IMG/VR virus record: IMGVR_UViG_648276647_000020
Strand: one strand, 5' to 3'
DNA: 30,723 nt
Origin: a virus
Taxonomy: Duplodnaviria; Heunggongvirae; Uroviricota; Caudoviricetes
Under the pieces are notes generated by a model. It saw only the letters and a list, made by a program, of their open reading frames with translations. It ran no database searches and was not told the DNA's origin. Of this stretch, positions 3,326 through 7,730 are shown piece by piece. Both the position numbers and the translations under genes were made by a program. Each line of letters opens with the position of its first letter. The stretch's first letter is position 1.

Positions 3326-3556
3326 ATGTGTATTAAAGCTGAAAAATATATTGAATGGGTTAAACACTGTCAGTGCCACGGGGTGCCGCTGACGACATAT
3401 AAATGCCCCGGATGTGGTGAACAGATTATGACGCAATGCTCACCCGAAAAGGAAATTCGGGATTCCCTGACATGTTGTCCGTGGTGCAGCGCAGTTTTCT
3501 TTAAACAGGTAAAAGGCGCGAAGGTAAAAGCCAGCGCGGTTATTCAGAATCAATAA
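3326..3556 (+). CDS. Cys-rich putative zinc-ribbon small protein
   Basis: 76 aa from ATG 3326 (SD ggaga 3315-3319); the ORF track's earlier start lies inside the previous gene. Motifs CQCHG, CPGCG, CCPWC. Confidence 0.55.
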   Translation: MCIKAEKYIEWVKHCQCHGVPLTTYKCPGCGEQIMTQCSPEKEIRDSLTCCPWCSAVFFKQVKGAKVKASAVIQNQ

Positions 3557-3845: not shown

Positions 3846-4265
3846 ATGAACGTCAAAATCCGAAATGAAATTCAGGCATTAATCCGAATTCAGGAACGCA
3901 ATAACAACGGTGGTGAATTACGCGAGTTTATTTGCGCCCGGAAAGTTGATGGTTATGGTGAAAAGACTTACCTGATTACTTTCGACCATTACAGCATCTG
4001 TGCGCGTTATTGTGGCGAAAGCATATCCCGCGCCATTGCGTCTGGCGATGCGTTTAACGTGGATTTATGGGAGTACGTCATGGACCGTGAATACATCTGT
4101 GTATCAGACCCGAAAGCCCGTGAAATGTGGCAGCGTATCTGGCGCGATTACCGGTTAATGGCAAAAGGCTGGGCGCGCTGCTGTTATTCCTCGCTTGCCC
4201 TGAAAGCGGTTCAGTTATCGCTGCGGCATATTCCGGCATCACTGCGCGAGCCTCTGCTGTACTGA
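3846..4265 (+). CDS. hypothetical early protein (Cys-containing)
   Basis: 140 aa from internal ATG 3846 (MNVKIRNE...). Alternative start ATG 3822 overlaps the previous stop. No recognisable motif. Confidence 0.5.
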   Translation: MNVKIRNEIQALIRIQERNNNGGELREFICARKVDGYGEKTYLITFDHYSICARYCGESISRAIASGDAFNVDLWEYVMDREYICVSDPKAREMWQRIWRDYRLMAKGWARCCYSSLALKAVQLSLRHIPASLREPLLY

Positions 4266-4277
4266 ATGGTGGCTGAC

Positions 4278-4565
4278 ATGAAGTGTAATCGTAAGCGCTG
4301 GTCACGCGAAGACCGGGAATTTATCGAAGCCAACGTCGGGAAAATGACCGTTGAAGAAATGGCGGAAAAACTGAAAGTCGCCACAACCGCCCTCCGGGCA
4401 CATGCCAGAAGGCACGGAATATCATTGTGTGTATACCGAATCAGTGAACACGACAAATATTTATGTCGTGAACTTTATAAAGAAGGGCTGGATATTCATG
4501 TCATTGCCCGAAAGATGGAATTAAGCAATCGAGCTGTATCCAGCATTGTATACAGCGGATATTAA
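4278..4565 (+). CDS. small putative HTH DNA-binding protein
   Basis: About 96 aa; GGTGG SD 8 nt before ATG 4278 (alternative ATG 4266). Two helix-turn-helix-like stretches (MTVEEMAEKLKVATTALRAHARRHGI; LDIHVIARKMELSNRAVSSIVYSG). Confidence 0.5.
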   Translation: MKCNRKRWSREDREFIEANVGKMTVEEMAEKLKVATTALRAHARRHGISLCVYRISEHDKYLCRELYKEGLDIHVIARKMELSNRAVSSIVYSGY

Positions 4566-4584
4566 TTAACAGGAGCTTTAATTT

Positions 4585-5109
4585 ATGGCTAAACCAGCAA
4601 AACGTATCAAAAGTGCCGCAGCGGCTTATGTTCCACAAAACCGCGATGCGGTGATTACCGATATTAAACGCATCGGGGACTTACAGCGCGAAGCATCACG
4701 TCTGGAAACGGAAATGAATGATGCCATCGCGGAAATTACGGAGAAATTTGCAGCCCGGATTGCACCGATTAAAACCGATATTGAAACCCTTTCAAAAGGC
4801 GTTCAGGGATGGTGTGAAGCGAACCGCGACGAACTGACGAACGGCGGCAAAGTGAAGACGGCGAATCTTGTCACCGGTGATGTATCGTGGCGGGTCCGTC
4901 CACCATCAGTAAGTATTCGTGGTATGGATGCAGTGATGGAAACGCTGGAGCGTCTTGGCCTGCAACGCTTTATTCGCACGAAGCAGGAAATCAACAAGGA
5001 AGCGATTTTACTGGAACCGAAAGCGGTCGCAGGCGTTGCCGGAATTACAGTTAAATCAGGCATTGAGGATTTTTCTATTATTCCATTTGAACAGGAAGCC
5101 GGTATTTAA
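4585..5109 (+). CDS. gam: Gam-like host-nuclease inhibitor (DNA-end binding)
   Basis: 174 aa; N-terminus MAKPAKRIKSAAAAYVPQNRDAVITDIKRIGDLQREASRLE... resembles Mu Gam as I recall it. SD aggag upstream. Confidence 0.85.
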   Translation: MAKPAKRIKSAAAAYVPQNRDAVITDIKRIGDLQREASRLETEMNDAIAEITEKFAARIAPIKTDIETLSKGVQGWCEANRDELTNGGKVKTANLVTGDVSWRVRPPSVSIRGMDAVMETLERLGLQRFIRTKQEINKEAILLEPKAVAGVAGITVKSGIEDFSIIPFEQEAGI

Positions 5110-5207
5110 TACCACCATTAATATTTAATTAATTCACATTCTTTTAATTATGGCGCGATACGTCAGGGGATTGCTCGCGCCTGAAACAGATTACTGAGGA
5201 ATAAAAC

Positions 5208-5738
5208 ATGGTTGATGCAAAAATTCTGAATGGTGTCAGCACATTATTACGGGCTTTCGGACGCCTGACCTGCGGAGTTCTGGCTGAAAAAATGAATATG
5301 CTGCCCTCGTCAATGGTGTATTTCCTGCGTGATGCGGTTGATGCCGGAGTGCTCACCGAATGCAACGGATTTTATGACGTTCCGCGCCCGCGTCCGACGC
5401 CGCCTGTAAGACGAAACGCAACTGAGCAGCCTGCTGTTGATGATGCGGTGTGGTGCAACTGGCGTCGCTCATTACCCTGGGTGGAAGGTAATACCATCCC
5501 CGCGCTGGCAAAAGAGTTTGCGACGGGCGTGCTGACCTGTGAATCCGTTCACATCGTTGCAGAAGTGGACAACAGAATGTGCGAACAGGGTATGCCCCGT
5601 TTTGTGATGGCTTATATCGATATCCGGCTGGGGCGTTTTATTTGCAGTTCAAGCGCCTGGAATATCACCGACCATGTACTGCGTTATCTCATTCTTGATT
5701 GTTCTCCGGTTCCCGCAGCGGTGCAGGAGATGGCGTGA
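5208..5738 (+). CDS. hypothetical early protein, possible N-terminal winged-helix
   Basis: 176 aa, SD gagga upstream. Stop overlaps the next start (TGATG at 5736-5740). Confidence 0.55.
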   Translation: MVDAKILNGVSTLLRAFGRLTCGVLAEKMNMLPSSMVYFLRDAVDAGVLTECNGFYDVPRPRPTPPVRRNATEQPAVDDAVWCNWRRSLPWVEGNTIPALAKEFATGVLTCESVHIVAEVDNRMCEQGMPRFVMAYIDIRLGRFICSSSAWNITDHVLRYLILDCSPVPAAVQEMA

Positions 5739-6268
5739 TGTTTTTTAAAACGTCAAATCCCGCAGCACTGCTGGCATGGGACCAGTTTATGGCGGACTGC
5801 CTGAAACTACGCGAAGAAGCCCGCCATCTTGAGAAGGTTCTGGGCTGTGGTTGCCGGTCAGTATTCAGCACAGGTATTGGTGGGCGTCATTTTCATGGCG
5901 TGAATTTTCCGGGGAATGAGCGCCCCTTCTCGCGGGAGCTGTGGACCGTACAACGGCCCGCATCAGGTAACAGTTGCAGGCCCAGAACTTCGCGGATACC
6001 TGCTCATCTCAGGGAGCAGGCAAGAGAGCTGGCGAAAATATGGCAGGAGAATATTCCGGTCACTTACGCCCGCACAGACGCTCTTTTACCCGCACTGGGA
6101 CTGGATTTCAGCGCAACAATATTCGGGCCGCTCCAGTGGTTCCGTGTTGGTGATGTGATTTACGTCATGACGGGGATGACACCCGCACAAGGCCGCATGA
6201 CTGAAATCCTTTCTGACGAATTTATCCGGGCGCAAAAACAGGCGGAGGTAAACAATGGAAAACAATAA
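5738..6268 (+). CDS. hypothetical early protein
   Basis: 176 aa from ATG 5738, translationally coupled to the upstream ORF. A central low-complexity stretch and an overlapping alternative-frame ORF (5916-6158) leave open a frameshifted gene. Confidence 0.45.
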   Translation: MFFKTSNPAALLAWDQFMADCLKLREEARHLEKVLGCGCRSVFSTGIGGRHFHGVNFPGNERPFSRELWTVQRPASGNSCRPRTSRIPAHLREQARELAKIWQENIPVTYARTDALLPALGLDFSATIFGPLQWFRVGDVIYVMTGMTPAQGRMTEILSDEFIRAQKQAEVNNGKQ

Positions 6269-6437
6269 AACATCGTATTCGTGGCTGGGGAAATTCACCA
6301 CGGTGAAACAGGAATGCCCGACCTGCGGTAATGAATCCCCTGAATATCTGAAAGAGTGCCCTCATTGTGGCGGGCTGAAATGCAACCACTGCGATATGGG
6401 CGATGACACAGCGTGCATGAATTGTGAAGGTGAATAA
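6255..6437 (+). CDS. putative zinc-ribbon small protein
   Basis: 60 aa with four CxxC pairs (CPTC, CPHC, CNHC, CMNC). SD ggagg 6 nt upstream. Confidence 0.55.
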   Translation: MENNKTSYSWLGKFTTVKQECPTCGNESPEYLKECPHCGGLKCNHCDMGDDTACMNCEGE

Positions 6438-6438
6438 T

Positions 6439-6741
6439 ATGAATAATGAAACTAAATTTACTCCCCTTAATATTGATAACGTCATGGCTGAAAAAGGGAT
6501 GCTGGAACGTGTTCGCGCTATCGTTGAATATGGTATTAAGCATAATCTCACCGCCAGAGAAGTCCGTGACATTATCAACCGCGAAATGAATCGTCTGGAA
6601 ACAGTAGTGGCACTGCAAAATGAAACAGCCCGCGAGGAGTACATCCGCCGCAGGCTGGGGCTATCAGACCAGGATATTGTTACTGACGCTCATGTATTTG
6701 AGGCTTTTGAGATCCGTCAGCATCTGGGCCTTACGAACTGA
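6439..6741 (+). CDS. hypothetical early protein
   Basis: 100 aa from ATG 6439 with SD aaggtg; the track's 6424 start is a GTG just upstream. Confidence 0.5.
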   Translation: MNNETKFTPLNIDNVMAEKGMLERVRAIVEYGIKHNLTAREVRDIINREMNRLETVVALQNETAREEYIRRRLGLSDQDIVTDAHVFEAFEIRQHLGLTN

Positions 6742-6792
6742 TGTGTAAATTCAGGCGGTGTTGCAGCACCGCCTCTTTCCGGAGGTACGATC

Positions 6793-7344
6793 ATGAGTCG
6801 CACATCCCTGATTAAATTAATCCATGTCGCCCGTCGGGAGCTACAACTCGACGACGACACTTACCGCGCTTTTCTGATGCAGAAAACGGGCAAAATCAGT
6901 TGCCGCGAGCTGACGGTAACGCAACTGGAACAGGTGCTCGATGCCATGAAAGAACGCGGCTTTAAGAAGCTGAATAAACATCCACGTCGCCGCTTTAAGG
7001 GGCATGTCACGCCCCGCGAGAAGGTATACAAAGTCTGGCAGCAGATGGCAGAAGACGGTTTTATTACCGATGGCGGTGATGTGGCGCTGGATAAATATGT
7101 TCAGCGCCTGACGGCGAAACGTAATGGCGGACAGGGTGTTTCCACGCTGGCGTGGTGCCATGGCGACACGCTGCTGACAGTCCTCGAAACACTCAAGCAG
7201 TGGCACATCCGCTGTATTCGTGAAGCCTTTTCCCGTCACGGGCTTCCGTTGCCGGTCAGTCCGTCCGGGCGTGAACTGCGCGGCTATGACGCCATGACGG
7301 CGGCTTATGCCCATGCCAGAAAGACACGGAGGATGGCACAATGA
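6793..7344 (+). CDS. gemA: GemA-like (Mu gp16) regulatory protein
   Basis: 183 aa, N-terminus MSRTSLIKLIHVARRELQLDDDTYRAFLMQ.... Position immediately upstream of and overlapping mor (ATGA). SD ggagg. Confidence 0.7.
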   Translation: MSRTSLIKLIHVARRELQLDDDTYRAFLMQKTGKISCRELTVTQLEQVLDAMKERGFKKLNKHPRRRFKGHVTPREKVYKVWQQMAEDGFITDGGDVALDKYVQRLTAKRNGGQGVSTLAWCHGDTLLTVLETLKQWHIRCIREAFSRHGLPLPVSPSGRELRGYDAMTAAYAHARKTRRMAQ

Positions 7345-7730
7345 CGGAAGATTTATTTGGTGATTTGCAGGATGACACCATCCTGGCACATCTTGACAAT
7401 CCCGCCGAGGATACGTCACGCTTTCCGGCACTGCTGGCGGAGCTGAACGATTTACTGCGCGGGGAATTGTCCCGGCTGGGTGTTGATCCTGCCCATTCAC
7501 TGGAGATTGTTGTGGCTATCTGTAAGCATCTGGGCGGCGGTCAGGTCTACATTCCACGCGGTCAGGTTCTGGACTCGCTGATTCGGGATTTGCGTATCTG
7601 GAATGATTTTAACGGTCGCAACGTCAGCGAACTGACCACCCGTTATGGTGTCACTTTCAATACGGTTTACAAGGCCATTCGCCGGATGCGACGGCTGAAA
7701 TACCGCCAGTACCAGCCCTCACTTCTGTAA
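7341..7730 (+). CDS. mor: Mor-like middle-operon transcription activator
   Basis: 129 aa. C-terminal HTH region (YIPRGQVLDSLIRDLRIWNDFNGRNVSELTTRYGVTFNTVYKAIRR) is paralogous to the C protein at 8151. Followed by a terminator. Confidence 0.85.
   Translation: MTEDLFGDLQDDTILAHLDNPAEDTSRFPALLAELNDLLRGELSRLGVDPAHSLEIVVAICKHLGGGQVYIPRGQVLDSLIRDLRIWNDFNGRNVSELTTRYGVTFNTVYKAIRRMRRLKYRQYQPSLL

Follow-up and report, generated by a model that had tools for sequence, protein, structure and literature searches.

What does a 60-residue protein with eight cysteines, all of them in CxxC pairs, do in the early region of a tailed phage? The question is raised by an open reading frame (ORF) at 6255..6437 (+) of the virus record IMGVR_UViG_648276647_000020 (Caudoviricetes), a stretch of 30,723 nucleotides that is referred to here, in its full length, as the window. 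A first-pass annotation, made from the letters alone, had described the product as a zinc-ribbon mini-protein, the second in its early block and unrelated to the first, preceded by a strong Shine-Dalgarno (SD) sequence. Its sequence identifies the ORF as gene 13 (E14) of a transposable phage of the Mu type, and its product, gp13, belongs to a sharply defined, acidic eight-cysteine family of about 220 cluster representatives.

The ORF comprises 60 codons from an ATG start to a TAA stop at 6435-6437 and encodes the protein MENNKTSYSWLGKFTTVKQECPTCGNESPEYLKECPHCGGLKCNHCDMGDDTACMNCEGE, with a calculated mass of 6.7 kDa, an isoelectric point (pI) of 4.8, and a net charge of -5 (-7 for the core alone). 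The protein is 100% identical to Mu gp13 (AAF01090.1 / Mu_13), the product of locus Mu_13 (older name E14, Mu coordinates 7471..7653), which is annotated as "hypothetical protein". The surrounding 1.4 kb of DNA shares 98% identity with phage Mu (AF083977, NC_000929) and 96-98% with D108, SfMu, and the Mu-like Yersinia phages. The same DNA is found in 33 of 5,426 complete E. coli genomes, in every case in the chromosome, and strains W, LY180, and S17-1 are among those with a 100% identical copy. The ORF has been annotated since the first sequence of the Mu left end (M64097) and is of a familiar kind, a small cysteine-rich phage accessory protein. What the present analysis adds is a defined family, proof that the gene is under selection, its acidity and mobility, and the result that no known fold or function is matched.

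The gene 13 product is non-structural. Its gene belongs to the "semi-essential early" block that gam and gemA flank, with gam 1.1 kb upstream of it and gemA 0.36 kb downstream. Synteny with AF083977 is maintained, with gp13 between gp12 (E13) and gp14 (E15) and upstream of gemA. The strong SD that had been claimed is indeed present, a GGAGG inside the 3' end of gp12 and 6 nt before the gp13 ATG. The reading frames of gp12 (stop at 6266-6268) and gp13 overlap by 14 nt, and a single nucleotide separates the gp13 stop from the gp14 ATG (6439), tight packing that is typical of the Mu early operon. Among seven Mu-type copies, the ratio of nonsynonymous to synonymous polymorphism (pN/pS) in the gp13 frame was 0.0-0.39 and mostly 0.1-0.2. 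The amino acid changes fall in residues 2-16, with only S28N and L41Q in addition, and none affects a cysteine or, L41 aside, the C-terminal half. Gene 13 is thus a real gene under purifying selection.

All eight cysteines of gp13 lie in the four CxxC pairs that had been noted (CPTC, CPHC, CNHC, and CMNC), which begin at residues 21, 35, 43, and 54. Four such pairs are unlikely to arise by chance, since only 18 of 200,000 shuffles of the gp13 amino acid composition gave at least four CxxC motifs and, of the 414 open frames of at least 40 amino acids in the window, no other has four. The whole protein (residues 1-60) aligns with positions 1-60 of the 60 in the profile of PHROG 5584 ("unknown function"), with E = 1.4e-43. 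A word-indexed search returned only 14 close clusters; when 1.84 billion representatives were searched exhaustively with an HMMER profile, 226 matched at E <= 1e-3. The latter were of two kinds, small proteins (45-190 amino acids) that match over the whole core and long multi-repeat proteins that match only at profile positions ~12-38, the generic first zinc ribbon. Because nothing beyond that ribbon is shared, we do not count the long proteins as family members. A second word-indexed search, with an alignment of 62 sequences as query, found 218 proteins, and all 120 of those listed have the arrangement CxxC-x(9-40)-CxxC-x4-CxxC-x7-CxxC, with the x4 and x7 spacers fixed. The conservation of the CxxC pairs in related prophages had been named as the point on which the first-pass description could fail; the pairs are invariant there and far beyond.

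An alignment of 104 sequences with 37-95% identity to gp13 was used to assess conservation. The eight cysteines, K42, D47, and G49 are invariant in it, and G25, P36, M48, D50, and D51 are conserved in at least 90% of the sequences. In 159 members, the loop between the third and fourth pairs has D (99%), M (92%), G (99%), D (92%), D (89%), and V or T (95%) at successive positions. The only element of variable length is the linker between pairs 1 and 2, which ranges from 9 to ~40 residues. Most members lack the N-terminal ~18 residues of gp13 or have an unrelated sequence in their place, and some are only 45-50 amino acids long; the family C-terminus is usually an acidic tail with 47% D/E. The resulting signature is CxxCG-x(n)-CPxC(G)xxKCxxCDMGDDVxCxxC followed by the acidic tail. 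Of the 159 members, 157 carry a net negative charge, with a median of -8 and a median pI of 4.2. The invariance of residues other than cysteine (K42, D47, M48, G49, D50, and D51) points to a conserved functional surface.

A few representatives among the profile matches (P0160, P0109, P0143) have pairs 2-4 alone or pair 1 in degenerate form; pair 1 seems to be the most dispensable of the four. One of them carries a hydrophobic helix at its N-terminus. Another is attached to a fragment resembling threonine dehydratase and may be a chimera of a prophage boundary or of assembly.

The description as a zinc ribbon held for the first half of the protein (residues 17-40) and did not hold for the 4xCxxC module as a whole, which matches no known family or fold. 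In scans of gp13 against Pfam (a library lacking the PF26xxx models), NCBIfam, and PADLOC, no model reached its threshold; PADLOC covers defence proteins and not anti-defence proteins, so the result there speaks only to defence families. The precomputed Pfam annotation of gp13 homologs is likewise blank, although very recent families (Gp11_C, Phage_Mu_Gp12, Kil_protein) mark their neighbours. All of the sub-threshold Pfam matches are confined to residues ~11-40, and those to zinc ribbons (Zn_Ribbon_1, DZR, Zn_ribbon_LapB, Zn_ribbon_15) score 14.5-16.2 bits against cut-offs of 25-28.9. A sequence-profile search of the PDB gave only generic similarity to the first ribbon (RPA12, E = 5e-4; the ribbons of RpoP, L37e, and L40e), and the alignments over the whole core were non-significant (6ydh, E = 0.057; 6sw9_C, E = 0.16).

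AlphaFold performed poorly with an alignment of 13 sequences (predicted local distance difference test, pLDDT, 60.6). With the 104-sequence alignment the mean pLDDT was 75.6, with ~87 over residues 21-50 and ~57 in the N-terminus. The model has one β-hairpin (32-34, 41-43) with pair 2 in its turn, and a disordered N-terminus. A Foldseek search with this structure found no significant fold match and no solved relative. Its top matches, also non-significant, were cross-braced two-zinc folds (AN1, RING, PHD, FYVE), the best being the AN1 structure 5ij4 (TM 0.47/0.54 over 43 columns). The ligand spacing of gp13 falls inside the consensus ranges of AN1, RING, and PHD fingers, or close to them. It would suit two sequential sites (pairs 1+2 and 3+4) and a cross-braced, AN1/RING-like arrangement (1+3 and 2+4) equally well, and the natural variants without pair 1 favour neither.

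Homologs of gp13 occur at 66 loci in IMG/VR and in 17 of 185,579 species-representative genomes, all of them Gamma- or Betaproteobacteria. In the Mu-like prophages of Escherichia, Salmonella, Yersinia, and Shigella, and in a distant metagenomic Mu-like phage contig in which it is directly downstream of gam, the gene is always between gam and gemA, with varying immediate neighbours. The homologs occur singly, in early, accessory, or replication-proximal gene arrays, and outside the Mu-like phages the settings are diverse. The homolog of Klebsiella phage Kpn BU9 (60 kb; CDS0105) is directly upstream of genes for an exonuclease, a Gp2.5-like single-stranded DNA-binding protein (SSB), and a DNA polymerase (PolA). 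In ~58-kb PolA phages it belongs to an array with a Mu gp6 homolog, adjoined by a ParB_N-like protein, PolA, and a PDDEXK nuclease. On a 209-kb contig of a large, jumbo-type phage it is beside GyrB/topoisomerase IV-like genes and an NAD ligase. Some homologs lie within arrays of small unannotated genes.

Two further settings resemble plasmids or integrative and conjugative elements (ICEs). One has GmrSD_N and ParE/Phd. In the other (L011 / L012, contigs from ENA and Logan), the long-linker MNYRETDDEC... subfamily is found in an array with kleA/kleC, HU, HipAB, a peptidase resembling M41, and an LPD1 (polyvalent-protein domain) protein of over 1,000 amino acids. The presence of this subfamily in such an array indicates that the gp13 module is not restricted to phages.

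No conserved partner gene emerged from these contexts. In an all-against-all BLAST comparison of ten of them (±4 kb), the homolog was the only gene in common, and gp12 was not beside it outside the Mu-like phages. Among 147 neighbours at 21 diverse loci, scanned against Pfam and PHROG, no family recurred more than two or three times; those with annotation were mostly genes of replication and nucleotide metabolism or parts of Mu-type modules. The module is also found at the C-terminus of several proteins whose N-terminal domains are unrelated to one another, which suits a portable binding module; the only functional hint from these fusion partners is a borderline match to a Phage ProQ C-terminal-like domain (26.6 bits, cut-off 27). 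In four Mu-like IMG/VR loci (L040-L043; about 4407-5165, +) it lacks a start codon of its own and is fused in frame to an upstream protein of ~190 amino acids, unrelated to gp12 and with no Pfam match, in an ORF of 252 amino acids. This fusion is evidently what PHROG 6418 represents. We considered a fusion or frameshift between gp12 and gp13, at which phrog_6418 (231 amino acids, with gp13 on positions 176-231) had hinted. Since the fusions found join gp13 to a different upstream protein, we rejected it; gp12 itself matches phrog_2314 only. The gp13 module is a self-contained, horizontally mobile, stand-alone accessory gene.

How might such a protein act? The reading that we favour, tentatively and with slightly less than even confidence, is that gp13 is an inhibitor or captor of a host protein that serves host takeover or anti-defence. 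The protein would be translated as part of the tightly packed Mu early operon and would consist of a disordered, variable N-terminus of 18 residues and a core of 40 residues. The eight cysteines most likely hold two structural zinc ions: they are equally invariant and the x4 and x7 spacing is rigid, which is what two tetrahedral sites require. The likeness of the first half to zinc-ribbon profiles (RPA12, L37e) and the compact AlphaFold core support a metal site. The core would present an invariant surface (K42 and the D-M-G-D-D loop), usually with an acidic tail, to a partner protein. Protein binding through this acidic loop and tail is thus the mode of action that we infer, and the binding would be stoichiometric and directed, early in the infection, at a host factor or at a protein of host defence or repair.

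Several points weigh against this reading. PHROG 5584, Pfam, NCBIfam, and PADLOC provide no experimental or homology link to any function, and literature searches, within the library covered, on Mu gp13/E14/Mup13, on the signature, and on phage proteins with four CxxC motifs returned nothing relevant. For an inhibitor, the acidity and the early-region location are only circumstantial evidence, and neighbours such as the exonuclease, SSB, PolA, topoisomerase, and Gam genes fit a role in favour of replication equally well. HVO_2753, the one micro-protein of the four-C(P)XCG type to have been characterised, fills only one of its zinc sites, and AlphaFold mispredicted the empty one (PMC11241148). 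A protein of this design may thus be occupied at a single site.

Mu is the model transposable phage, and most of its semi-essential early genes, gene 13 included, have no assigned function. Since gp13 was already on record as a hypothetical gene and its kind is familiar, the present finding is useful for annotation and not surprising. Its selection, its defined family, and its travel as a lone gene make it a reasonable and cheap candidate for screens for host takeover or anti-defence and for small-protein structure determination. A bolder proposal, which we consider rather unlikely, is that the KCxxCDMGDDVxCxxC module is an undescribed two-zinc mini-fold and the mark of a new class of portable acidic inhibitors. 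If so, the module would serve the phages and conjugative elements of Gamma- and Betaproteobacteria as a means of disabling a single conserved host protein (one of defence, repair, or the nucleoid, for example), and Mu gp13 would be the experimentally tractable founding member.

The closest rival, in our estimate unlikely, makes gp13 an accessory of replication, transposition, or recombination, a zinc module that docks on a phage or host protein of DNA metabolism and boosts Mu replication or the handling of DNA ends. Gene 13 would then be a classical non-essential early function and not a defence inhibitor. The proximity to gam, both in Mu and in the distant Mu-like contig, would fit this role, as would the replication genes that adjoin the non-Mu homologs (exonuclease, SSB, and PolA; ParB_N-like, PolA, and PDDEXK; GyrB/topoisomerase IV-like and ligase) and the fact that PHROGs of replication and nucleotide metabolism are the commonest annotated neighbours. 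Deletions in the Mu semi-essential early region lower replication (the "arm" phenotype), but the mapping of "arm" to the gene 13 ORF is not established. Moreover, no one family of DNA metabolism recurs beside the homologs, some of which are in plasmid/ICE-like arrays without nearby replication genes, and early accessory genes of lytic phages often abut replication modules in any case.

A second alternative concerns the cysteines, which might not form two structural zinc sites. They might instead bind iron in a rubredoxin-like redox centre, or hold one metal with the remaining cysteines free or in disulfides and capable of thiol activity. The pattern CxxCG...CPxCG is also the rubredoxin signature, and there are sub-threshold matches to Zn_ribbon_LapB and to the C-terminal domains of rubrerythrin and nigerythrin. 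One "finger" of HVO_2753 is metal-free, and other C(P)XCG proteins bind other metals (PMC11241148). We nevertheless judge the alternative improbable, given the equal invariance and rigid spacing of the eight cysteines and a reducing cytoplasm that disfavours disulfides. As a rubredoxin, specifically, gp13 fits poorly: the motifs are present, but they are separated by a spacer of only 10 residues, there is no aromatic core, and Pfam Rubredoxin gives no match. Rubredoxins have ~29 residues between their CxxCG and CPxCG pairs and an aromatic core.

More doubtful still is a nucleic-acid-binding zinc-finger regulator of the kind represented by Mu Com or by the transcription activators P2 Ogr and P4 Delta. 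These are also small phage proteins of like size with CxxC pairs, Mu already uses Com, and the first ribbon of gp13 is similar to those in RNA polymerase subunits and in ribosomal proteins. DNA or RNA binding is unlikely, however, because the family is so strongly acidic (99% of its members, with gp13 itself at -5 overall and -7 in the core, against a basic Com). The gene also moves among unrelated phages, and no neighbouring gene or site on which it might act is conserved along with it. Kinship to Com was tried directly and rejected, a profile comparison with hhalign giving a probability of 2.9%.

Finally, two long minus-strand ORFs (6222..6644 and 6295..6618; 140 and 107 amino acids) overlap gp13 and gp14, and the 1991 Mu record gave a minus-strand ORF here as "putative". 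That one of the two is the true gene, or that gp13 is a chance ORF, can be dismissed as scarcely credible, since purifying selection acts in the plus frame, the plus strand has the strong SD and the operon packing, and distant homologs in unrelated elements, down to 37% identity, preserve the plus-frame protein and its eight cysteines, which settles the coding strand.

Table 1. Coordinates in the window of gene 13, its sequence elements, and the genes on either side
Feature	Coordinates	Strand	Basis
Shine-Dalgarno GGAGG	6244..6248	+	Direct sequence; AF083977 ribosome binding site of Mu_13
gp13 (E14) coding sequence, 60 aa + TAA	6255..6437	+	ORF list, Mu gp13 identity, PHROG 5584
N-terminal residues 1-18, variable, dispensable, predicted disordered	6255..6308	+	Homologs, pLDDT
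Conserved core, residues 19-60, CxxC-x10-CxxC-x4-CxxC-x7-CxxC	6309..6434	+	Alignment, AlphaFold
CxxC pair 1: C21 P T C24, then G25	6315..6326	+	Sequence, alignment
CxxC pair 2: C35 P H C38, then G39; turn of predicted β-hairpin	6357..6368	+	Sequence, alignment, AlphaFold
CxxC pair 3: C43 N H C46, after invariant K42	6381..6392	+	Sequence, alignment
Signature loop D47-M-G-D-D-T-A53; family consensus DMGDDVE, always 7 residues	6393..6413	+	Family conservation
CxxC pair 4: C54 M N C57, then short acidic tail E-G-E	6414..6425	+	Sequence, alignment
Upstream gene gp12 (E13), PHROG 2314; operon context, not a conserved partner	5738..6268	+	ORF list, Mu annotation
Downstream gene gp14 (E15), PHROG 6075; operon context only	6439..6741	+	Mu annotation

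Several observations concern the neighbouring early genes. The other cysteine-rich mini-protein of the block (3326..3556, +; 76 amino acids, with CPGCG and CCPWC motifs) is the equivalent of Mu gp6 (E5). The two proteins were correctly called unrelated: BLASTP gives E = 0.08, with only the CPxCG motifs aligned. Homologs of Mu gp6, identified by precomputed annotation (PF26833 Phage_Mu_gp6; L017 305-553 and L018 1483-1731), are in the same early array as the gp13 homolog. The joint occurrence of gp6 and gp13 homologs in the unrelated ~58-kb PolA phages points to the semi-essential early genes of Mu as cassettes that circulate separately. The product of gp11 (5208-5738, +) belongs to Pfam family Gp11_C (E = 1.5e-40), and gp12 is assigned to Phage_Mu_Gp12 only through the precomputed annotation of its homologs.

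Between the gp14 stop and the gemA start (6742-6793), the window lacks a cassette of ~229 bp that is present in reference Mu (Mu L001 ~4143-4375). In Mu this cassette is bounded by a short CTGAT repeat and holds Mu_54 and a small minus-strand ORF for which SfMu and E. coli RM8082 carry an annotation. What comes directly after the gp14 stop in the window is a stem-loop, GGCGGTG-TTGCAG-CACCGCC (6754-6773), then a T-rich run and the SD of gemA (6781-6785).

Among known systems, Mu gp13 and PHROG 5584 represent the same gene with no difference, and neither annotation gives a function. Within the same phage, a comparison is offered by Com, the zinc-finger translational activator of mom, which has 62 amino acids and CxxC pairs. 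Com differs from gp13 in having four cysteines instead of eight, in being basic instead of acidic, and in being encoded in the late region. The best Pfam match of gp13 is to DnaJ_CXXCXGXG (PF00684; E = 0.003, 18.2 bits against a cut-off of 32.7), the central domain of DnaJ, in which four CxxC motifs bind two zinc ions. None of the gp13 motifs (CPTCGNE, CPHCGGL, CNHCDMG, and CMNCEGE) is CxxCxGxG, however, and the spacers are much shorter.

The generic zinc ribbons resemble gp13 in residues 17-40, where two CxxC(G) knuckles are 10 residues apart and the second is in the predicted β-hairpin turn between strands 32-34 and 41-43; the second half, KCxxCDMGDDVxCxxC, has no counterpart in them. Similar in overall design are HVO_2753 / DUF1610 and the archaeal "Zn-ribbon RNA-binding protein involved in translation" (6ydh, 6sw9_C, 6skf_Az), which like gp13 have ~60 amino acids and four CxxC-type motifs and give a weak profile alignment over most of the gp13 core (profile positions 5-50). 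That alignment is not significant (E = 0.06-0.2), Pfam DUF1610 does not match gp13, and only two of the four gp13 motifs are of the C(P)XCG type. The archaeal proteins are, moreover, cellular or ribosome-associated, whereas gp13 is encoded by a phage.

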